From NCBI GenBank assembly GCA_046727415.1, contig JBKPCO010000021.1:34052-98051 (forward strand): a DNA stretch of 64,000 nucleotides. Reading direction: 5' to 3'. The DNA is from Candidatus Methylomirabilota bacterium. GTDB lineage: Bacteria; Methylomirabilota; Methylomirabilia; Rokubacteriales; CSP1-6. This document shows positions 12,493 to 23,436 of this stretch, one piece after another; within the stretch, counting starts at the first letter, position 1; every line of letters begins with the position of its first letter. The notes beneath the pieces are model-generated. The model saw only the letters and a list, made by a program, of their open reading frames with translations. It did not search any database and was not told the DNA's origin. A program made the position numbers and the translations under genes.

Positions 12493-13983
12493 ATGGCGAC
12501 CTTGACCGACGAGCCCTTCACACTGGTCATCTTCGGCGCCTCGGGCGACCTGACGCGGCGCAAGCTCGTGCCCGCGCTCTGGAGCCTCTACGCCGGCCGG
12601 ACACTGCCCGAGCCGTTCACCATCATCGGCAGCGCGCGGAGCGAGGTCGGGCCGGACGAGTTTCGTGTGCGCATGCGCGACGCCGTGCGCGAGTTCGCGC
12701 GCACGAAGCCGCCTTCGGCAAACGTCTGGGACCGCTTCGCCTCGTCCTTGTCCTATGTGGCCGGCGACCCCACCGATCCGGCCCTCTACGCCCGACTCGA
12801 AGGCACCCTGAAGAGCGTGGAGGGCGCCCGGCCCGGGCCTGCGAACCGGCTCTTCTATTTCGCGACGCCACCGAGTCTGTACGACGCCATCGTCACCAAC
12901 CTCGGCGCCTCCGGGCTCGCGGATCCGCGCGGGGGCTGGACACGCATCATCGTCGAGAAGCCGTTCGGGCACGACTACGAAAGCGCCCGCGCGCTCAACA
13001 GCCATCTGGGCAGCGTGTTTCGCGAGGACCAGATCTATCGGATCGACCACTACCTCGGGAAGGAGACCGTCCAGAATCTGCTGGTGCTGCGATTCGCCAA
13101 CGAGATCTTCGAGCCCCTGTGGAACCGTAACCACGTGGCGGAGGTCCAGATCACCGTCGCCGAGTCGATCGGCGTCGAGACCCGCGGCGCGTATTACGAG
13201 GAGGCGGGCGCGCTCCGCGACATGATGCAGAATCACCTGCTCCAGCTCCTGTGCCTCATCGCGATGGAGCCGCCCGTCACCTTCGACGCCAACCCGGTGC
13301 GCGACGAGAAGAACAAGGTGATGCAGGCCATCCGCCCGATCGACGCGCGCAAGATCGACGAGGTGGCGCTCCGCGGTCAGTACGGCCCGGGCTTCGCCGG
13401 GGGCAAGCCGGTCCCGGGATACCGGCAGGAGAAGGGCGTCGCGCCCGACTCGCGGACGGAGACGTACGCGGCGCTGCGGCTCACCGTCGACAACTGGCGG
13501 TGGGCGGGCGTGCCCTTCTATCTCCGGACGGGCAAGCGCATGGCCAAGCGCGTGAGCGAGATCGCGATCCGCTTCCACCGCACGCCGCACATGATCTTCC
13601 GCGGCGATTCGCCGGGGCTCGAGCCGAACGAGCTCGTGATCCGCATCCAGCCCGACGAGGGGATGGCGCTGACGGTTGCGGCAAAGACGCCCGGGCCCGA
13701 TCTCAACCTCGGCCCGGTGGGTCTGGACTTTCGCTACGGTGAGGTGTTCGGCGCCGAGCCGCCCGAGGCGTACGAGCGGCTCCTGCTCGACGCGGTGCAC
13801 GGCGACTCGACGCTCTACGCGCGCGCCGACTGGGTCGAAAAGGCCTGGGCGCTCCTCGGTCCCGTGCTCGACGCCTGGGCGCAGTCGTCGGCGCCGCCGC
13901 ATCTCTACGAAGCGGGATCGTGGGGACCGGCCGAAGCCGACCCGTTTATTTCCCGGGACGGGGGCGCCTGGAGACAGCCATAG
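12493..13983 (+). CDS. zwf: Glucose-6-phosphate 1-dehydrogenase.
   Basis: LVIFGASGDLTRRKL at the N-terminus, the active-site peptide RIDHYLGKE, and EKPFGHD. 496 aa. Confidence 0.9.
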   Translation: MATLTDEPFTLVIFGASGDLTRRKLVPALWSLYAGRTLPEPFTIIGSARSEVGPDEFRVRMRDAVREFARTKPPSANVWDRFASSLSYVAGDPTDPALYARLEGTLKSVEGARPGPANRLFYFATPPSLYDAIVTNLGASGLADPRGGWTRIIVEKPFGHDYESARALNSHLGSVFREDQIYRIDHYLGKETVQNLLVLRFANEIFEPLWNRNHVAEVQITVAESIGVETRGAYYEEAGALRDMMQNHLLQLLCLIAMEPPVTFDANPVRDEKNKVMQAIRPIDARKIDEVALRGQYGPGFAGGKPVPGYRQEKGVAPDSRTETYAALRLTVDNWRWAGVPFYLRTGKRMAKRVSEIAIRFHRTPHMIFRGDSPGLEPNELVIRIQPDEGMALTVAAKTPGPDLNLGPVGLDFRYGEVFGAEPPEAYERLLLDAVHGDSTLYARADWVEKAWALLGPVLDAWAQSSAPPHLYEAGSWGPAEADPFISRDGGAWRQP

Positions 13984-14061
13984 TCAACAATTCGTAGGCG
14001 CGCCTCGGCCGGCGGGGCCCAGCCCCGCGACGGCCTGCGGCGCGCACATCGGCCGGGGGCC

Positions 14062-14086
14062 GGGCCCCCGGCCGGGTCCAGAGGCG
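14062..14086. terminator. GC-rich palindromic hairpin between convergent genes, a bidirectional terminator candidate.
   Basis: GGCCGGGGGCC-g-GGCCCCCGGCC has an 11-bp stem and lies between the zwf stop and the convergent lipoprotein gene stop. Confidence 0.3.
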
Positions 14087-14103
14087 CCCGAGGAGCTCGG
14101 GCG

Positions 14104-14520
14104 TTAGCGGGGTGTCGTGGTGATGGCGTGCTGCATTGCGCGGCTCGCCGTCAGCTCGACAACCGTGTACCACCAGCCGTCGATCACGCGAACCTCCAGC
14201 GAGCTGCTGGCCTTCTCGTAGATCTGCGTGACGCCATGGTCGGAGACGGCAGTACTGCTGACATGGCGCCAGCCGTTGGCCTCGAGCGTGGTCCGCATGG
14301 CCGCGCTGAGGCTGTCGACTTCCAGGCGCCCCCGATACACGAGGCGGGCCGCCTTGACCGTCGGCGACTCGATGATCGTCGACTTGTCGGGCTGGTACGA
14401 GAGCCCCTTCGGAACCGGAATGTCTTCGAACTCACTCCGCGCCTGCTTGGGTGGGGCGGAGGCGCATCCGGCGGCGAACGCGAGGACGAGAAGCGCTGTG
14501 GTGATTGATTTAATGCTCAT
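14104..14520 (-). CDS. Hypothetical lipoprotein.
   Basis: Signal peptide with a lipobox (LVLAFAAGCASAP). 138 aa. Confidence 0.55.
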   Translation of the reverse strand: MSIKSITTALLVLAFAAGCASAPPKQARSEFEDIPVPKGLSYQPDKSTIIESPTVKAARLVYRGRLEVDSLSAAMRTTLEANGWRHVSSTAVSDHGVTQIYEKASSSLEVRVIDGWWYTVVELTASRAMQHAITTTPR

Positions 14521-14589
14521 GATCGGAGCCTAGCAGGCCGGTCGCGGGGTCACAAAAGAAATTGTCGTCCACGCACGACCGGTGGGGGC

Positions 14590-15348
14590 TCAGCCCAGGA
14601 CGGAATACCCCCCGTCCACGGGGATGGCGGTGCCGGTGACGAAGTCGGAGGCAGGGCTGGCCAGGAACACCGCGACCCCCGCCATGTCCTCCATCGTGCC
14701 CCAGCGTCCGGCGGGCGTGCGTCGGAGCACGTTGTCGTGCAGGTCCGTGACCTGCCGGCGGGCGGCTCGCGTCAGGTCCGTGTCGATCCAGCCGGGGAGC
14801 ACCGCGTTGACCTGGATGTTGTCCTTTGCCCACGCCGTGGCGAGCGATTTGGTCAACTGCACCAGCCCCCCCTTGCTCGGGCCGTAGGCCGGGGAAAACG
14901 AGACGCCGAAGATGGACATCATCGAGCCGATGTTGATGATCTTGCCGCCGCCGACCGCCTTCATGGGCGCGTAGGCGGCCCGGGAGCACAGAAACGCGCT
15001 GGTGAGGTTCGTGTCGAGCACGTGGTGCCAGTCAGCGAGAGTGTAGTCCTGGGGCTGCTTGCGAACGTTGGTCCCCGCGTTGTTGACGAGGATATCGAGG
15101 CGGCCGCACCGATCCTGCGTCGAGCGGATCAGCGCATTGACCGACGCCTCGTCGGCGACGTCGACCGCGATGGCGAGCGGCTGTCCGCCGAGCTTCTCGA
15201 GCTCGCGAACAGCGGCGTCGGATTTCGCCTGATTCCGCCCCGCCACGACGACGCGCGCTCCCGCACTTGCCAGGCCTCGAGCCATGCCGAGGCCGATGCC
15301 TCCATTGCCGCCGGTCACGATCGCGACTTTGCCCGTGAGATCGAACAT
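14590..15348 (-). CDS. SDR-family oxidoreductase.
   Basis: TGGNGGIGLG (Rossmann motif), NNAG, and the catalytic YxxxK (AYGPSK). 252 aa. Confidence 0.85.
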   Translation of the reverse strand: MFDLTGKVAIVTGGNGGIGLGMARGLASAGARVVVAGRNQAKSDAAVRELEKLGGQPLAIAVDVADEASVNALIRSTQDRCGRLDILVNNAGTNVRKQPQDYTLADWHHVLDTNLTSAFLCSRAAYAPMKAVGGGKIINIGSMMSIFGVSFSPAYGPSKGGLVQLTKSLATAWAKDNIQVNAVLPGWIDTDLTRAARRQVTDLHDNVLRRTPAGRWGTMEDMAGVAVFLASPASDFVTGTAIPVDGGYSVLG

Positions 15349-15368
15349 CGTCCCTCCCGGGCTCGATC

Positions 15369-18300
15369 TTACCCGAAGTCGTGGGACGGCACGTGATGGC
15401 CGAGCGCCGGAAGACCGCGCGCCCGCGCCGCGCGCACCGAGATGACGCCGTCCTGCCGCTGCGCGATTCCTTCCACGAGGAGGTACGGCTCGGCCACGAG
15501 CGCGAGGCGATGGCGGGCGAAGATCGGCGGCGTCACGATCACGTTGGCGATTCCCGTCTCGTCCTCGAGCGAGAGGAAGACGAAGCCCTTCGCGGTGCCC
15601 GGCCGCTGGCGGACGATGACGCTGCCGGCCACCTGGACTCGGGCGCCGTCGTGCACGCCCGCGAGCTCACGCGCGCTCAGCACGCCGGCGTGGCGGAGCG
15701 CCGCCCGCCGCAGCGCCATCGGGTGGCGGCCGAGCGTGACGCTGGTCCCGGCGTAGTCGGCGGCCAGGCGCTCGACCTCCGTCATCTCGCTCAAGGGGCT
15801 GAGCTCACGCGGCGGGTCCTCGAACAGCGGACCAGCCGACGACGCCGCCACCGTCCAGAGATTGGCGCGGCGGGTCCCGCCGAAGGGCGCGAGGGCGCCG
15901 ATCGCCGCGAGGGTTTCGAGCTCGTCGCGCTCGAGTCGCGCGCGCCGGGCCAGATCATGGACGGAGTCGAACGGCCGCGCGCGCCGGGCCGCCACCAGCG
16001 CGCGGCCGGCCGCCTCGCGAAGCCCCCGGACGTACCGTAATCCCAGCCGTACCGTGAGTCCGGTGTCGTCGGGCTCGATCACACACAGCCACTCCGAGCG
16101 CGTGACGTCGATGGGGCGGATGCGCAAACCATGGCGCTGCGCGTCCTTCACGATGGTGGCCGGATGATAGAAGCCCATCGGCTGGTTGTTGAGGAGCGCG
16201 GCGTAGAACGCAGCCGGATGGTGCACGCGCAGGTACGCGCTCGCGTAGGCGAGCAGCGCGAAGCTAGAGGCGTGGGAGTTGTGGACGACGAGGTCGTTGG
16301 CGAGGAAGTTGTGGTCGCCTTCGATGTGAAGATCGTATGTTTCCCGCGTGCCGACCGGATCGATCGACAGGACACGATCCCAGTACAGATCCGATTCGGC
16401 CACCCGAGCCAGCTCGGGAGAGTCGAAGTATCGAGCGAGCCTGGCCGCAACCCAGCGGCGATATCCTCGCTTGGATTCATTCGGCGACACGAGCTCCCGG
16501 AGCGCGACGCCGGCCCCATGGCCCACGTCGGCCCAGGTGGCCCCTCGATGGTGACGCTCGCGATCGATCACGGCTTTCACCGTCACCGGAACCACGACGC
16601 GTGATGCGCGCCGCTGAACGCCCTTCGTCGCCAAGTTTCTCACCCGTTGCCACTTGTCATGATCGAGAAACCGCCGAGCAATTCGCCGATCGAACCGCCG
16701 GAGGTTCTCCTGTCCGGTGATCGTGACGACGAAACTCGTGACGTGCCGACCCCGGTACGGACGCGAACGCGAGTACACCCGCGACACGATCCCGAGACGG
16801 AGGAGGAGATGCTGGATATCTTCGGCCAAGCGGCGCGAGGCCGTGTCATAGGACGCATGCCCAGCCCCTGAAATCGAGCCGTCGCCTTCCCAGAGTCGCG
16901 CCAGGAGCAGCGCGAGATCCACAGGACAGAGCTCGAAGACCTCCTCGGGTAGCCGCTTCGCTCGCGCGTTGGCGTCCCAGATGCCGAGCCGGCGAGCCCA
17001 TTGCACGGCCCCGATCGGTTTCGATGCGTCATGACGCCGGACATGCACGCTGTAGCAGCTTCCATGCCGGGCGATGGTGGCTCGTGTGTTGTCGAATTGC
17101 TGGACGGCGTCCACGAACTCGTCTCGATGCTGTGAGCTGGTCGTATAGAAATAGAACGTCGTGGGATGACACAGATTGCCTTCGGCGATGAGATCCGCCA
17201 GCACGATCAGCTGATGCCGGTGCCAGCGCCGGCGGCCTGACGCGGGAAGCCGACGAGCCGCCGCAATGTAATCTCCAACCTGGAGACTCGCCAGGCCTCG
17301 CCAACCGTGCATCGTGAGTAGAGGATGCTCGGCGGTCGCCATAATCTCCCGGCCAAGAGCGGTGCGAAGGCGATAGACCATCCGGGGCCCGCTCGATGTC
17401 GCCGCGAGCACGCGGCGCTTGCGCAACCGCATGCTGGCGTCGGATGCCAGCGTCTTCTCGACGCGCACTCGCCCGCTTACGATGTCTTCGATCGTCACCC
17501 AGCCCCCGGTATCGGCGTCGAGCACGCGCGTCTCACCAACGACACATTCAGGAAAGCCATACAGCGCGAAGGCGGTGATCGCGTGAACGATCTCCTCGGC
17601 GGCAGCGCCGTGGATCCCCTGCCGCGCCATCCCCGCCCGCAGCTTCGTCTCGACCTCGGCCATGAGACGCTCGCTCCGCTTGAAGCCGAACGCCCGGCGG
17701 AGCTCCTCGGCCTCCGTGGCCGTGAAGCCGGCCGTCACCATCGCCATGCGTAACAATTGCTCCTGGAACAGCGGCACGCCGAGGGTCCGGCGCAGGATCG
17801 GCTCGAGACTCGGATGGGGATACGTCACGGGCTCGCGGCCGCGGCGTCGCCGGATGTAGGGATGCACCATGTCGCCCACGATCGGCCCGGGGCGAATGAT
17901 CGCGACTTGCACGACGAGGTCATAGAACCGCTCGGGCCTCACGCGCGGGAGCGTCGCCATCTGGGCGCGGCTCTCGACCTGAAACACGCCGATCGTGTCG
18001 GCCTCCTGCAGGCTCTGGTACACGGCCGGATCGTCCGGCGGGAGTCGCGCCAGGTCGACGTCGCCGCCGGTCTCCCGCACGAGCGCCAGCGAGTCCTGGA
18101 TCACGGACATCATGCCGAGCCCGAGCAGATCGACCTTGACGATGCCGAGCCCCGCGCAGTCGTCCTTGTCCCACTGGACAACGACCCGGCCCGGCATGGT
18201 CGCGGGCTCGAGCGGCACCACGTCGTCGAGCCGGCCGGCGGCGATCACCATCCCGCCGGAGTGCTGGCCCAGATGCCGCGGCAGATCCTGGATTCGAGTC

Positions 18301-19742
18301 CAGAGCATGGCGAAGCGCCGGATGCGCGGCGCTGTCGGATCGCAACCGGCCTCGGGCAGATGCTTCGTCAGGAGCTCCTGGGGATCCTGATAGCCCCAGT
18401 TCGCGACGAGCTTCGCGAGCCGGTCGCGCATGTCGCGCGGAAGCCCGAGCGCCTGCCCGACCTCGCGCGCCGCGCTGCGACCGCGATACGTGATGACGTT
18501 GGCGGTCATCCCGGCGCCGAGCCGACCGTAGCGGCGATAGACATGCTGGATGACGGCTTCGCGCCGGTCGCCGCTCGGCAGATCGAGATCGATGTCGGGC
18601 CACTCGTCGCGCGCCTCGCTCAGGAACCGCTCGAACAGGAGCTCCATGCCGACCGGATCGACCGCGGTGATCCCGAGGGCGTAGCAGACCGCGCTGTTGG
18701 CCGCCGAGCCGCGGCCTTGAACGAGGATATCGTGGGTCCGGCAATGCTCGACGATGTCCCAGACGATCAGGAAATAGCCTGCGAGGTCGAGACGGCCGAT
18801 GAGGTCGAGCTCGTGTGCGACCTGACGGCGCGCCCGGGCCGCCAGCGGCCCCATACCGTAGCGCGTTCGGACGCCGCGCTCGGTCAGCTCGCGCAGATAC
18901 CCGAGCGGCGTCTGGCCCGGTGGCAGCGGAAACTCGGGGAACCGGTAGCCGAGATCCTTCAGGGTGAACGCCAGCCGCATCGCCAGCTCACCGGTGGCGG
19001 AGATCGCGTCGGGCAGATCCCGGAACAGCTCGGTCATCTCGGCGCCGCGCTTCAGCGAGCGCTCGCCGTTCGCCAGCAGGCGGCGGCCCGCGCGATCGAG
19101 ATCGGTCTTCTCGCGAATGCATGTGAAGACGTCGGCGAGCGGGCGACCCTCGGGGCGCGCGAAGAGCGGCTGGTTGGAAGCGACGAGCGCCACGGGGACC
19201 GCGCGCGCGAGCGCCACCAGCCCCTGGAGGATTTCTTCCTGGTCGCGGAGGAAATGACGCTGGATCTCGACGAAGCAGCTCGAGCGGCCGAACATCGCCA
19301 CCAGGCGCGCCAGAACCAGCCGGGCGCCGTCGACGTCGCCACTCGCCAGGCGCCGCGCGAGCGGGCCGCGCGTGCCCCCGGTGAGACATACCAGCCCGGC
19401 GGCGTACGGCTCGAGGTCGTCGAGCGCGATCGCGGCGGCGCCCTTCGGAGCCCCGAGCTTCATCCGCGTGATCAGGCGGCACAGGTTCTGATAGCCCTCG
19501 CGGTCCTCGACGAGCAGCGGCAGGCGCGAGCCGTCGGCCAGTGTGATCTCGCTGCCGACGATCGGCTTCACGCCCGCGTTCGCGGCCGCCCGGGTGAGCC
19601 GCGCCGCGCCGTAGACGCCGTCGCGATCGACGAGGGCCACCGCCGGCATCTCGAGCCGCGCCGCCTCGGCGGCGAACGCCTCCGGGTGCTCGGCGCCCTC
19701 GAGGAACGAGAAGGCCGATTGCGCGTGGAGCTCGATGAACAC
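15369..19742 (-). CDS. dnaE2: Error-prone DNA polymerase III alpha subunit DnaE2 (ImuC), interrupted by an intein.
   Basis: The PHP domain N-terminus is ELHAQSAFSFLEGA. Pol III alpha core blocks are present (GSAANSAVCYALGITAVDP, IDLDLPSGDRREAVIQ), and there is an OB-fold C-terminus. The likely start is the GTG at 19742, 2 nt after the imuB stop. A 423-aa intein is inserted between ...ALYGFPE and SHASSFALL. Confidence 0.9.
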   Translation of the reverse strand: MFIELHAQSAFSFLEGAEHPEAFAAEAARLEMPAVALVDRDGVYGAARLTRAAANAGVKPIVGSEITLADGSRLPLLVEDREGYQNLCRLITRMKLGAPKGAAAIALDDLEPYAAGLVCLTGGTRGPLARRLASGDVDGARLVLARLVAMFGRSSCFVEIQRHFLRDQEEILQGLVALARAVPVALVASNQPLFARPEGRPLADVFTCIREKTDLDRAGRRLLANGERSLKRGAEMTELFRDLPDAISATGELAMRLAFTLKDLGYRFPEFPLPPGQTPLGYLRELTERGVRTRYGMGPLAARARRQVAHELDLIGRLDLAGYFLIVWDIVEHCRTHDILVQGRGSAANSAVCYALGITAVDPVGMELLFERFLSEARDEWPDIDLDLPSGDRREAVIQHVYRRYGRLGAGMTANVITYRGRSAAREVGQALGLPRDMRDRLAKLVANWGYQDPQELLTKHLPEAGCDPTAPRIRRFAMLWTRIQDLPRHLGQHSGGMVIAAGRLDDVVPLEPATMPGRVVVQWDKDDCAGLGIVKVDLLGLGMMSVIQDSLALVRETGGDVDLARLPPDDPAVYQSLQEADTIGVFQVESRAQMATLPRVRPERFYDLVVQVAIIRPGPIVGDMVHPYIRRRRGREPVTYPHPSLEPILRRTLGVPLFQEQLLRMAMVTAGFTATEAEELRRAFGFKRSERLMAEVETKLRAGMARQGIHGAAAEEIVHAITAFALYGFPECVVGETRVLDADTGGWVTIEDIVSGRVRVEKTLASDASMRLRKRRVLAATSSGPRMVYRLRTALGREIMATAEHPLLTMHGWRGLASLQVGDYIAAARRLPASGRRRWHRHQLIVLADLIAEGNLCHPTTFYFYTTSSQHRDEFVDAVQQFDNTRATIARHGSCYSVHVRRHDASKPIGAVQWARRLGIWDANARAKRLPEEVFELCPVDLALLLARLWEGDGSISGAGHASYDTASRRLAEDIQHLLLRLGIVSRVYSRSRPYRGRHVTSFVVTITGQENLRRFDRRIARRFLDHDKWQRVRNLATKGVQRRASRVVVPVTVKAVIDRERHHRGATWADVGHGAGVALRELVSPNESKRGYRRWVAARLARYFDSPELARVAESDLYWDRVLSIDPVGTRETYDLHIEGDHNFLANDLVVHNSHASSFALLAYASAYLRVHHPAAFYAALLNNQPMGFYHPATIVKDAQRHGLRIRPIDVTRSEWLCVIEPDDTGLTVRLGLRYVRGLREAAGRALVAARRARPFDSVHDLARRARLERDELETLAAIGALAPFGGTRRANLWTVAASSAGPLFEDPPRELSPLSEMTEVERLAADYAGTSVTLGRHPMALRRAALRHAGVLSARELAGVHDGARVQVAGSVIVRQRPGTAKGFVFLSLEDETGIANVIVTPPIFARHRLALVAEPYLLVEGIAQRQDGVISVRAARARGLPALGHHVPSHDFG
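16278..17546 (-). mobile_element. Intein (423 aa) with a LAGLIDADG homing-endonuclease domain inside dnaE2.
   Basis: It begins with Cys (CVVGETRVLD) and ends ...LANDLVVHN, followed by Ser (the +1 residue). It carries two LAGLIDADG-like motifs (LADLIAEGN, LLARLWEGDGSISG). The flanking extein sequences rejoin as a conserved Pol III motif (GFPE-SHASS). Confidence 0.85.
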
Positions 19743-19744
19743 GG

Positions 19745-21259
19745 TCAGTCGTAGACCGCGTCGAGGTACCAGTGGTCGGTCAGCCGGTCGCGCGCGATGC
19801 GGCAGAGCGCGCCATCGGACAGCACAACGTCCCACTCCTCGCGCGCCCACGCCTCGACATCCCACCACTCGCCCGACGCGCGCCACGGCCCCGCCCACGC
19901 GAGAACGCGCCGCGCGTCCACGCGCATCGGCCGCGCGCCCACCGCCTCGACGTCGACACGCCGCGCCGGCCGCATTCGGCGGACGGCGAGCCGATGGTCC
20001 CGGCTGTCGAGGCCAGGCACATCCGGCGACCGCCTGTCGAGCGGCTCGGGCTGCGAGAACCCCAGCATCGTGAACGCGTCGGAACGATACGAGTCGACGA
20101 GCGCGGGCGAGCCGACATTCTCGGTGCCGACGAGGGCGGCCAGACGCGCGAGCACGGACACGAGGTCGCGGGGCGCGGGCGCGAGCGGCTGCCAGAGTCC
20201 TCCCTGCCCGGGCTGAGTCCGGATTGGATGTGCGCTCACCGCCACGCGCGTCACGGCGGCGCCGGGGGGGTGCGCCTCGAGATCGAGGATCACCAGAGTG
20301 AGGATCGGCTTGACGTCGACCACCGGGTAGGCGAGCGACACGTCTCGCGCGTGGTGACCACCGGTGGCGAGGCCGAGTCGGACCTCGAGCGCGTCAGCGG
20401 CGAGCGCCGCCGACGCGAGCCGCTTGCAGAGACGCTCCAGCACGGTCTCGAGCACGCCCGCGAGCACGCCGAGCGAGTCGATCTCCCACTCGAGCCCCTG
20501 CGCTTCCTCCCAGAATGGCGGCGGAGTCCACGGTCGGAACGGATCGTGATCGAGGCCGAGCGCCAGATCGTGAGCGCGCAGGCCGGCGGGGCCGAGCCGC
20601 GTGGCGAGCCCCGCGCGCGGCAGTGCCGCCAGCTCGCCGAGGGTCCGCACGCCCCATCGGGCGAGGGTCTCGGCGAGATCCGGAGAGAGTGCGAGCGTCG
20701 CCAGCGCCGCGCCCGCGAGCGCCGCGCGTTCCCGCCCCTCGGGAACGACCGTCACCGGGGCTGACGCCCTCGCCGCCGTCACTCTCGCGGCGGTCCGGCT
20801 GGCCGCCAACCCGACGCGGGCCGCGAGGCCGACCGCTCGCGCCTGATGCACGAGGCGTCGCCCGATGGCGGGGGGATCGCCGATGAGACGCTCGAGACCG
20901 ACCGTGTCGACGTAGACGAGCCCCGGGCCACCGTCCTCGATCCGTGGCGAAACGGCCAGCGCCGCTTCGAGCAGGGCCTGCCGCGCGGACAGAACGGACT
21001 CCTCGGTCAACGGTCGTGTCACCAGCATCGGGCAGCGGGCCCGCGCCTCCGCCTCCGTCATCCCCGGACGCACGCTCTGCGCGCGCGCCTCGGCGTTCGC
21101 CTCCACGATCATCGCGATCTTCGGCGCCGGTGAGCCGGCGCTCAGGCGATCGACCCGGACGTTGACGACGCCCAGCGGGCGCGCGCGCAGGGCAGGCTCG
21201 CCACGCTCGACCGCGGCCGCGTCGAAATACTCGACGAGCACGCAGGCGAAGCGGTTCAC
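19745..21259 (-). CDS. imuB: ImuB, a Y-family-polymerase-like mutasome component.
   Basis: The N-terminus is VNRFACVLVEYFDAAAVER, typical of ImuB/DinB-like proteins. The GTG start at 21259 overlaps the imuA stop (GTGA). The first 120 codons of ORF 19745..21619 are Arg-rich junk. Confidence 0.8.
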   Translation of the reverse strand: MNRFACVLVEYFDAAAVERGEPALRARPLGVVNVRVDRLSAGSPAPKIAMIVEANAEARAQSVRPGMTEAEARARCPMLVTRPLTEESVLSARQALLEAALAVSPRIEDGGPGLVYVDTVGLERLIGDPPAIGRRLVHQARAVGLAARVGLAASRTAARVTAARASAPVTVVPEGRERAALAGAALATLALSPDLAETLARWGVRTLGELAALPRAGLATRLGPAGLRAHDLALGLDHDPFRPWTPPPFWEEAQGLEWEIDSLGVLAGVLETVLERLCKRLASAALAADALEVRLGLATGGHHARDVSLAYPVVDVKPILTLVILDLEAHPPGAAVTRVAVSAHPIRTQPGQGGLWQPLAPAPRDLVSVLARLAALVGTENVGSPALVDSYRSDAFTMLGFSQPEPLDRRSPDVPGLDSRDHRLAVRRMRPARRVDVEAVGARPMRVDARRVLAWAGPWRASGEWWDVEAWAREEWDVVLSDGALCRIARDRLTDHWYLDAVYD

Positions 21260-21816
21260 GCGGTCCACCAGAGCGGCGGCGAATCCTCCGACCCTTGGCC
21301 GCGAGAGCGAAGCACCCGGGTTCTCGTGCGCACGCGCGCCAGGCGTGTGGGGACCGACCCGGGGCCGGTCCACTCGATCCCTTCCCGCAAGGTCTCGAGG
21401 GCCAGCGCCGCGCTCGATCCCGTGAGCCGACGCCGCCCGACGATCAGCAGCGCCACGTCGGTCCGCCGGACCGCGAACTTCAGGCGGAAGGACAGAGCCG
21501 GCGGAAGGCGAGGCACGCGCTCGCCGAGATCGAGCGCGACCAGCGCGAACCCCGGGCAGCGAACGAGCATGTCGGCGGCGCGAAGCGCCACGCCTCGATC
21601 GCTTCCGCATCGGACCCACAGAAGCCGGCGCAGATCGATCCCCGCCCGCGCCGCCGACCGTGGGTCGAATGTCTCCTCGGCGTCGACGAGGGCCGCGGTC
21701 TCGCCCTGACTCACGACGTCGCTGAGGCAGGCCAGGAGATAGCTCGTACGACCGGAGGAGGGCTTCCCGACGATCTCGGTGATCTCGCCTCGGATCGGGG
21801 CCACGCTCTTGGCCAT
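21256..21816 (-). CDS. imuA: ImuA, a RecA/SulA-like cell-division-inhibitor homolog.
   Basis: 186 aa with a P-loop-like GKPSSGRTS, placed upstream of imuB-dnaE2 in the canonical cassette order. Confidence 0.7.
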   Translation of the reverse strand: MAKSVAPIRGEITEIVGKPSSGRTSYLLACLSDVVSQGETAALVDAEETFDPRSAARAGIDLRRLLWVRCGSDRGVALRAADMLVRCPGFALVALDLGERVPRLPPALSFRLKFAVRRTDVALLIVGRRRLTGSSAALALETLREGIEWTGPGSVPTRLARVRTRTRVLRSRGQGSEDSPPLWWTA

Positions 21817-21880
21817 AATGGAAAGCTAATCATGTGACGAGTATCAGGCAAGACGAAGATGTGGGGGAAGTGAGTGGAGG

Positions 21881-21898
21881 CCCCACTAGATAGTGGGG
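21881..21898. promoter_or_regulatory. Perfect 18-bp palindrome in the divergent imuA/SDR promoter region, a candidate operator (possible SOS box).
   Basis: CCCCACTA-GA-TAGTGGGG has 8-bp arms. It lies 65 bp upstream of the imuA start and 50 bp upstream of the ATG at 21949. Confidence 0.35.
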
Positions 21899-21948
21899 TT
21901 CAGCCCAGGAAGACGCGATCGGCTAGAATGCGTGCCGAGGAGGCTTCT

Positions 21949-22716
21949 ATGGAGCTCCGCACTGTGAAAGCCGTCGTGACCGGTGGCGCATCCGGGCTTG
22001 GACGAGCGACCGCCGAGCGGCTCGTCGACGCGGGCGCGTCGGTCACCCTGCTCGACCGCCCGGCGTCGCCGGGCGCCGAAGCCGCGAAGGCTATGGGAGA
22101 GCGCGCCATCTTCACTCCTGCCGATGTGACGCTCGCCGACGAGGTGAGCGCGGCGCTCCAGACCGCTCGCGACCGGCTGGGCGACGTCAACGTCCTTGTC
22201 AACTGCGCCGGCATCGGCACAGCCATGAAGACGTTCGGAAAGGCGGGTCCGGCCAAGCTTGAGGACTTCACCCGGGTCATTCAGGTGAACCTCGTCGGCA
22301 CCTTCAACTGCATCCGGCTCGCCGCCGCTCTCATGGCCAAGAACACGCCCAGCGCCGAGGGCGAGCGCGGAGTCGTCATCAACACCGCATCGGTCGCGGC
22401 CTTCGACGGCCAGATCGGCCAGGCGGCCTACTCGGCCTCGAAGGGCGGCATCGTCGGCATGACGCTGCCCGTCGCGCGCGACCTCGCCGAGCTGGGCATT
22501 CGCGTCATGACCATCGCGCCCGGGATCTTCGAGACGCCGATGCTCGCCACCTTGCCCGATCCCGTTCGGGTGTCGCTCGGCAAACAGGTGCCTTTCCCCC
22601 AGCGGCTCGGCCGTCCCGCGGAATTCGCAGCGCTCGCGCTCCATATCATCGAGAACGCGATGCTGAACGGAGAGACGATCCGGCTCGACGGCGCGATCCG
22701 CATGCAGCCCCGCTGA
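21949..22716 (+). CDS. SDR-family 3-hydroxyacyl-CoA dehydrogenase-like oxidoreductase.
   Basis: [23 protein letters not shown] and YSASKGG. 255 aa. A GAGGAGG Shine-Dalgarno sits 7 nt upstream of the ATG. Confidence 0.85.
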
Positions 22717-22725
22717 CGGCCGTCA

Positions 22726-23436
22726 GTGCCCGACGCCGAACGGCCACAGCGCGCGCGGCGGGCCGTCAAAAGCGTGGCCTCCCGCGTCGCCTTCAGAGGA
22801 TGGTCGCGTCTCTCGGGTCGGATTGTCGTCATCGATCAGGGCAACGAGCGGCGGCTCATGGTCCACGGCGAGATCCTCTCGATCTATCCGCTCGACGCCG
22901 ACTGGCGACCGGTCCGCCGCGAGTACTGGTGGAAGGCGCTCGAGGCCGTTCCGCTGCCGCCGAGGCCGGAGGTGCTGCTAGTCGGACTGGGCGGCGGAAC
23001 GCAGGTGCACCTCCTGTACCGGCTCTCCGACCCGCGCTCCATCACGGTGATCGAGCGCGATCCAGTCATCGTGCGGGTGGCTCGCCAGTGGTTCGGGCTC
23101 GATCGCGTCGGCAAGCTCGAGATGGTGTGCGCCGACGCGGAGACCGCGGTCGCCGGCCTCGCGCGGATGGGGCGCCGGTTCGACTACGTGATGGAGGACG
23201 TCACGTACGCGGATCCGCCGGAGGTCGCGCTGCCGAAGCTCCTGGCGATGGTGCCGCTGGTCACGCCGCTGGGATCGCTCGTCGTCAATCGCCATCGGCG
23301 AGGAGACCCGCGGCCGCTCGCCCGCACGCTGCGCCTCTACTTCAGGGAGGTCCGGCTGCGCCGAGTGCGGAAGACCGGCGAGAACACGCTGATCTGCTGC
23401 TCGCGCCCGCTGCTCAGCTCCGCGGCAGACGCTTGA
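22726..23436 (+). CDS. Spermidine-synthase-like (polyamine aminopropyltransferase family) protein.
   Basis: [31 protein letters not shown] and DYVMEDV match the spermidine synthase fold. The start is uncertain. Confidence 0.5.

Follow-up and report, generated by a model that had tools for sequence, protein, structure and literature searches.

An endonuclease-bearing intein in the error-prone polymerase gene dnaE2 of a Candidatus Methylomirabilota bacterium

In a 64,000-nucleotide stretch of DNA from a Candidatus Methylomirabilota bacterium (assembly GCA_046727415.1, contig JBKPCO010000021.1, positions 34,052 to 98,051), hereafter the window, the error-prone DNA polymerase gene dnaE2 of an imuA-imuB-dnaE2 cassette is interrupted within a conserved motif by 423 additional codons. 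What is this segment, is it likely to be active, and how did it come to occupy this position? We consider it highly probable that it is a class-1 intein (Cys1...His-Asn/Ser+1) with a double-motif LAGLIDADG endonuclease, a selfish homing element that was horizontally acquired by DnaE2. On our best reading, the element persists by patchy gain, endonuclease decay, and loss among Rokuibacteriota-like and other soil bacteria.

The intein lies at 16278-17546 on the minus strand as an open, in-frame segment of 423 amino acids (aa) from Cys1 to Asn423, delimited by profile matches, by a gap in orthologous proteins, and by a structure model. The initial annotation had given exactly these coordinates and this length, with no strand, and the termini that it proposed (Cys1 in CVVGETRV at one end, His-Asn followed by Ser at the other) are all present in the minus-strand translation, which starts CVVGETRVLDADTG and ends DLVVHN. 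A plus-strand reading of 16278-17546 was rejected, its translation being full of stops. The intein is in frame within the longest open reading frame (ORF) of the region (15369-19898, 1509 codons). In the remaining frames of the region, opposite strand included, five ORFs of 123-157 aa gave no Pfam matches, and no Rfam families were found in window positions 14000-23000. A tblastn search of the window for a second intein copy gave only the self-hit.

The sequences on either side, ...AITAFALYGFPE (...TAFALYGFPE) before the intein and SHASSFALLAYASAYL (SHASSFALLAY) after it, place the insertion point within the conserved YGFPE↓SHA motif (arrows mark splice junctions or insertion points), after its E and before its S, in the finger region of DnaE2, 23 residues past the end of the finger domain as defined by Pfam and ahead of the HhH domain. 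In a full-length alignment, four intein-free orthologs (loci L012, L013, L016, and L019) each showed a single gap of exactly 423 residues with GFPE-SHA contiguous, in agreement with the earlier proposal that the exteins rejoin to GFPE-SHASS. The closest of the intein-free orthologs, L012 (Rokuibacteriota), shares 83% extein identity with the window, and L019 shares 76%. When one genome per GTDB species was scanned, the 30+30 residues flanking the insertion matched intein-free DnaE2 loci as a contiguous 180 nt. Empty-site DNA was examined at nine loci, where the flanking DNA was highly conserved; the intein-less site of L012 reads ACCGCGTTCGCGCTGTACGGATTTCCTGAA followed directly by AGTCACGCGAGTAGCTTCGCGCTGCTCGCC. 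The alignment with intein-free orthologs thus shows a clean insertion, and the segment is not conserved polymerase sequence.

The splicing (HINT) domain is divided between the two ends of the segment. Its N-terminal subdomain (residues 1-104; 17235-17546, minus strand), delimited by alignment to residues 5-105 of the structure 1mi8 and by TIGR01445, holds Cys1 in block A and T71 and H74 in block B (GREIMATAEHPLLT). The C-terminal subdomain (residues 376-423; 16278-16421, minus strand), delimited by alignment to 1mi8 residues 109-155 and by TIGR01443, holds D405 and H412 in block F (RETYDLHIEGDHNFLAN) and H422-N423 in block G (DLVVHN), with Ser as the +1 residue. D405, H412, H422, and N423 are invariant in 47/47 aligned relatives, and C1, T71, and H74 are likewise present and conserved among the aligned family members. 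Comparison with intein profiles placed the Pfam and NCBIfam intein models above their curated cut-offs: Pfam Intein_splicing (PF14890) matched at 77.8 bits (cut-off 35.8), TIGR01445 intein_Nterm at 48.3 bits (cut-off 24.5), and TIGR01443 intein_Cterm at 25.0 bits (cut-off 15.6). The Ssp DnaB mini-intein 1mi8 aligns to the window intein over residues 3-104 and 376-422 (E 2.3e-24), and among NCBIfam models the intein taken by itself best matches the intein portion of the DnaB model PRK07773 (243 bits). At residue 35 (window 17442-17444), the window intein has Ser where 21/23 aligned members have a non-catalytic Cys (TLACD).

Between the two splicing subdomains, residues 105-375 (16422-17234, minus strand) form a LAGLIDADG homing-endonuclease region with a linker and DNA-recognition helices, identified from Pfam LAGLIDADG_3 (PF14528, 66.9 bits, cut-off 22.5) and the structure model; mini-intein relatives lack this segment. 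The initial annotation had counted two LAGLIDADG motifs, and both are there with their acidic residues intact. Motif 1 (LIVLADLIAEGNL, residues 113-125, 17172-17210, minus strand) reads LIVLADLIAE122GNL and motif 2 (LALLLARLWEGDGSI, residues 211-225, 16872-16916, minus strand) reads LALLLARLWEGD222GSI, so that each keeps an acidic residue and the following Gly. Equivalents of E122 occur in 29/32 aligned family members and of D222 in 42/44. We also compared the intein with that of locus L081, the nearest relative with DNA available (80% nucleotide identity, gapless over 423 codons). The Nei-Gojobori ratio of nonsynonymous to synonymous substitution rates (dN/dS) was 0.146 for the endonuclease region and 0.195 and 0.22 for the splicing halves, indicating that purifying selection on the endonuclease is at least as strong as that on the splicing domain. 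This low value supports, without proving, an endonuclease that may be active or was recently so.

An AlphaFold model of the intein, built on 53 family sequences, reached a mean predicted local distance difference test score (pLDDT) of 93.6 and a predicted template modeling score (pTM) of 0.92, and displays the alpha-beta-beta-alpha-beta-beta-alpha pattern twice in the endonuclease region. Its best matches in the PDB, by template modeling (TM) score, were TliVMA (7qss, TM 0.70, E 4e-23), PI-PfuI (1dq3, 0.64), and PI-TkoII (2cw7, 0.64), with PI-SceI (1vde) at a TM of ~0.46-0.49. In all four, as in the window intein, a HINT domain is interrupted by a double-LAGLIDADG endonuclease; they differ in being archaeal or yeast inteins in other host genes, with 13-20% sequence identity to the window intein. 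Two free-standing LAGLIDADG enzymes, I-DmoI and I-Tsp061I, match the central domain of the model as well.

The host protein was assigned to the DnaE2 (ImuC) paralog because it matches NCBIfam NF004225, "error-prone DNA polymerase", at 1226.5 bits (cut-off 939), whereas its match to the replicative DnaE model NF004226 (650 bits) falls under the cut-off of 1002. The precursor gene (15369-19742, minus strand) carries PHP, DNA_pol3_alpha, DNA_pol3_finger, HHH_6, and OB domains. Its start is likely the GTG at 19742, set by alignment to orthologs beginning MFIELHAQS; from there the precursor is 1457 aa long and the predicted spliced polymerase 1034 aa. The remaining part of the ORF (19742-19898) is a 52-codon, Arg/Gly-rich upstream extension that overlies the end of imuB and that orthologs do not have. 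The N-extein (732 aa, 17547-19742, minus strand) ends ...TAFALYGFPE, and the C-extein (302 aa plus stop, 15369-16277, minus strand) starts at Ser+1 of SHASSFALLAY. Both palm catalytic Asp motifs, PDIDLD and KVDLLG, are present and, with the intact ORF and tight operon coupling, make the host gene look functional.

What would this arrangement imply for the polymerase? Established class-1 intein chemistry, applied to the window by inference, suggests the following course. The imuA-imuB-dnaE2 operon would be transcribed and translated into the 1457-aa DnaE2 precursor, in which the HINT domain (residues 1-104 plus 376-423) would promote an N-S acyl shift at Cys1. The acyl group would then move to Ser+1 by trans-esterification, Asn423 would cyclize with help from His422 and the residues of blocks B and F, and an O-N shift would follow, yielding a free 423-aa intein and a 1034-aa DnaE2 in which YGFPE-SHASS is rejoined. 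Before splicing, the precursor, with a 47-kDa insertion in a conserved motif, would presumably be inactive, so that DnaE2 function and any mutagenesis by ImuA-ImuB-DnaE2 would require splicing; the dependence of mutasome activity on splicing, claimed at the outset, is in this sense a reasonable inference. For homing, the endonuclease, in the free intein or still within the precursor, would cut an intein-less dnaE2 site of ~20-40 bp (...TACGGnTTyCCnGAr↓TCnCACGCn...), and repair of the cut site by recombination would copy the intein gene in.

How far this element extends beyond the window was addressed with a search of 5.8 billion proteins (E<=1e-5), which returned 181 relatives. Among the 120 best that were listed, all but one, a DnaB intein, carried Pol III alpha domains or intein/endonuclease domains only. 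Related inteins, mostly endonuclease-less mini-inteins, stood at the same site in over 100 metagenomic fragments of Pol III alpha/DnaE2, and the junctions, wherever present, followed the pattern GF(P/N)(E/K)↓C...HN↓SH(A/S). The 60 members with both junctions comprised 52 mini-inteins (139-166 aa), four intermediates (242-291 aa) that differ in their deletion boundaries, and four of 377-426 aa, so the same site across the family holds full-length, partly deleted, and mini forms. The scan of one genome per GTDB species recovered at least 11 intein loci at this site among the 567 confirmed loci listed (roughly 2%), all of them from uncultured organisms. Six were full-size (372-451 aa; two Kofleriaceae, an Armatimonadota, a gammaproteobacterium, a Planctomycetota, and an unclassified bacterium) and five were mini-inteins. 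In five or more of the DnaE2 loci with an intein, imuB is directly upstream. The window intein is thus part of a sizeable, undescribed family that is so far found only in uncultured bacteria and metagenomes.

Two of the full-size inteins extend the family to the replicative paralog. In a Planctomycetota metagenome-assembled genome (MAG; L005:3634-8568) and an unclassified MAG (L011:3733-8610), full-length inteins of 409 and 451 aa, 38-46% identical to that of the window, occupy GFNK↓SHS of replicative DnaE1 (NF004226, 1271 and 1388 bits). Because these related inteins stand at the same motif position in DnaE1, a single intein lineage occupies the homologous site in both the DnaE1 and DnaE2 paralogs. 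One further candidate, found by its match to the block-F pattern (L059:5851-6300), was rejected: it is a cyanobacterial DnaX (tau/gamma) clamp-loader intein whose C-extein, CHQLTSQAQNALLK, is not DnaE.

These counts bear on the claim in the initial annotation that inteins in dnaE2 are uncommon, which needs qualifying. In its favor are the small share of intein-bearing loci (at least 11 of the 567 listed), their restriction to uncultured organisms, and the lack of any named DnaE2 intein in the literature searched. Against it stand the sizeable metagenomic family at the same site and the position of that site in a published hot spot of the Pol III alpha finger domain (PMC4760082).

Base composition and sequence identity both set the intein apart from its host gene. 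Its GC content at third codon positions (GC3) is 0.738, vs. 0.893 and 0.898 in the N- and C-exteins and a mean of 0.846 +/- 0.042 for coding-like ORFs of the window. Compared with the Kofleriaceae, Armatimonadota, and Gammaproteobacteria copies, the intein is 56-65% identical and the exteins 45-48%, an excess of intein over extein identity across phyla that points to horizontal spread. The state of the site varies among Rokuibacteriota-like genomes: L012 and L019 have it empty, L006 has a mini-intein there, and the window and L081 have a full intein. These patchy site states, together with GC3 and the identities, fit a cycle of invasion, fixation, endonuclease decay, and loss. As for a vector, a scan of viral contigs gave two weak, unrelated matches only and no phage-borne copy. 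A plasmid collection contained no same-site relative, its best matches being a DnaB-like intein, Bacillus endonucleases, and one dnaE intein at another site.

Several observations weigh against a selfish intein with a working endonuclease. The predominance of mini-inteins (52/60) marks endonuclease decay as a common fate in this family. No co-conversion tract was detected at the available divergence, third-position identity to L012 and L019 being flat at ~0.6-0.7. Since L081 has the intein and the local synteny in common with the window, acquisition of the intein predates their split and is not very recent; the GC3 of the window intein has nonetheless not equilibrated. Residue Ser35 departs from a near-invariant Cys. 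Splicing and cleavage themselves are predictions from residues, fold, and selection.

The leading alternative, which we hold as a minority possibility, is that the intein still splices with an inactive endonuclease, as a vertically inherited relic en route to a mini-intein and not currently mobile. The many mini-inteins and four deletion intermediates among complete members, the missing co-conversion signal, and the intein and synteny common to the window and L081, which fit vertical descent, all agree with it. Set against this, each motif retains its catalytic acidic residue and its glycine, and the endonuclease is full length, with a dN/dS as low as or lower than that of the splicing domain and a fold predicted with high confidence. 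In addition, the higher cross-phylum similarity of the intein than of the exteins means that the lineage has been mobile.

A second alternative would have the intein co-opted as a post-translational switch, in which conditional splicing (e.g., under redox or DNA-damage stress) gates DnaE2 and induced mutagenesis; we judge this improbable. The sensor could possibly be the near-invariant, non-catalytic Cys35 of most family members, which would make the switch redox-sensitive, and the window copy has Ser at that position. The context that speaks for it is a host polymerase of damage tolerance, encoded in an imuA-imuB-dnaE2 operon, and a finger-region motif within the published hot spot, which has been argued to reflect function (PMC4760082). 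Splicing residues are strictly conserved even in many endonuclease-less mini-inteins of this non-essential gene, but such conservation is expected anyway, since a non-splicing intein destroys DnaE2. Patchy presence among close relatives and foreign GC3 are, moreover, what a purely selfish element predicts. A variant in which endonuclease release is timed to the SOS response, when recombinational repair and hence homing are most efficient, seems to us hardly more than a slim chance. Finally, a segment that is no intein at all (a lineage-specific polymerase insertion domain, an assembly chimera, or a mis-assembled endonuclease fusion) is practically untenable and found no support, being effectively refuted by the 423-residue ortholog gap and by the same GFPE↓C...HN↓SHA junctions in independent assemblies from several phyla, in addition to the exact in-frame boundaries, the canonical residues, and a region whose alternative frames and opposite strand have no Pfam matches and which has no RNA families.

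A split or pseudogenized dnaE2 was considered on the basis of truncated gene calls on long contigs and rejected: the frameshifts of L081 are contig-wide and also split its adjacent short-chain dehydrogenase (SDR) gene. L081 further has one in-frame stop within the intein (W to stop), and its frameshifts and this stop are probably long-read errors. Errors of this type explain many "truncated" intein-only or half-polymerase proteins in databases. Some sources name fragmented dnaE2-intein proteins "LAGLIDADG family homing endonuclease".

Around dnaE2, the neighboring genes bear out the cassette named in the initial annotation, NF004225 identifying the host and ImuB-like and ImuA-like genes adjoining it. 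The imuB-like gene (19745-21259, minus strand) encodes a Y-family polymerase homolog that matches Pfam IMS at 62.1 bits (cut-off 23.2) and falls far under every DinB cut-off; its stop lies 2 nt ahead of the dnaE2 GTG start. The first cassette gene, imuA-like (21256-21816, minus strand), encodes a RecA-fold protein of 186 aa (Pfam RecA, 45.7 bits), and its stop overlaps the probable GTG start of imuB by 4 nt (GTGA, 21256-21259). The ImuA and ImuA' NCBIfam models gave weak matches (25-26 bits) under their cut-offs, so this assignment rests on fold, size, and position. SDR genes flank the cassette on both sides (14590-15348, minus strand, and 21874-22716, plus strand), and a glucose-6-phosphate dehydrogenase (G6PD) gene lies nearby (12493-13983, plus strand). 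The nearest relative of the window locus, L081:5872-10260, has the same SDR-imuA-imuB-dnaE2-SDR-G6PD synteny at 80-89% nucleotide identity, a shared arrangement that argues for a chromosomal context and not a mobile island. Together with the closest exteins, this local synteny with L081 makes a Rokuibacteriota/Methylomirabilota-like bacterium the probable source of the window.

Two conserved elements were observed upstream of imuA. A perfect 8+8 palindrome, CCCCACTA-TC-TAGTGGGG (window 21881-21898, minus-strand reading), occurs once in the window vs. 0.02 expected, and also upstream of imuA in L081. At the same spot L006 has a different palindrome, GCCTCAAGA-TA-TTGAGGC, which suggests that what is conserved is a hairpin and not a fixed operator. 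Nearer the imuA start codon, the block CGTCTTGCCTGATACTCGTCACATGATTAG (window 21826-21855) is conserved in L081, L012, L006, and L019, with a CACGTGA-type core in the relatives' version, and may be a putative promoter or operator of the cassette. A LexA box was looked for upstream of imuA and none was identified; the conserved upstream elements match no nameable LexA box.

Current understanding of inteins and of the mutasome is unchanged by these results, which would gain significance only if splicing turned out to be conditional and to act as a gate on mutagenesis. The site nevertheless offers a textbook-quality natural example, with full-length, decaying, and mini forms and empty sites at one position of one gene family. 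Its host, a non-essential polymerase of the stress response and not an essential replication protein, provides a test case for whether inteins persist because their removal is lethal or because splicing is regulatory. The family also matters for annotation, in that dnaE2-intein genes are fragmented by gene callers and databases and NCBIfam has no dedicated "intein-containing DnaE2" model. Its mini-inteins (139-155 aa, Cys1/Ser+1) are a possible source of new splicing tools.

How does the window intein compare with those already known? It is a canonical endonuclease-bearing intein of a known type, in a host paralog to which the literature has not drawn attention. The survey of PMC4760082 counted 116 Pol III alpha inteins, 89 of them cyanobacterial, and described a finger-domain hot spot with insertion points a-d and g within 75 residues. 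Those hot-spot inteins and the window intein share a host superfamily (C-family polymerase, COG0587) and a region, after the finger and before HhH. They differ in that the survey takes all of its hosts to be replicative Pol III alpha, without setting DnaE2, the host here, apart. DnaE2 inteins may well be among the non-cyanobacterial "PolIII alpha" inteins that it counts. Surveys of C-family and Y-family polymerases removed inteins before analysis (PMC3919608, PMC6511836), and no explicit description of a DnaE2/ImuC intein was found in the literature searched, including these two and the main text of PMC4760082.

The cyanobacterial split DnaE inteins (Ssp/Npu, site "a") are in the same motif and polymerase family as the window intein and, like it, belong to class 1, with Cys1 at one end and a terminal Asn at the other. 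In their native setting the exteins read AEY↓CFNK (PMC3759424), and the inteins lie between Y and G/C of YGFNK, four residues upstream of GFPE↓SH in the window. They are split, have no endonuclease, use Cys+1, and reside in DnaE1, whereas the window intein is contiguous and so not of the site-a split type; structural likeness to them (3nzm, 1zd7, 4kl5) is confined to the HINT core (E ~2e-4). A cultured actinobacterium also has an endonuclease-bearing intein in a dnaE gene, on plasmid pYJN5-1 of Paenarthrobacter sp. YJN-5 (NZ_CP053545.1, L084:2538-7997). It shares 31% identity with the window intein over the first 60% of its length, and differs in lying ~75 residues upstream, at YGVF↓C...HN↓CFQES (FQEQ motif), in using Cys+1, and in leaving the window-homologous site empty. 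Genes for a single-stranded DNA-binding protein (SSB) and an HNH endonuclease adjoin this plasmid dnaE. The closest characterized sequence relatives of the window splicing domain are instead the DnaB-helicase inteins (1mi8; mycobacterial, PRK07773), which differ in host protein and insertion site and share an identity of ~30-36%; a metagenomic DnaB intein, P0074, is 36% identical to the window intein over 84% of its length.

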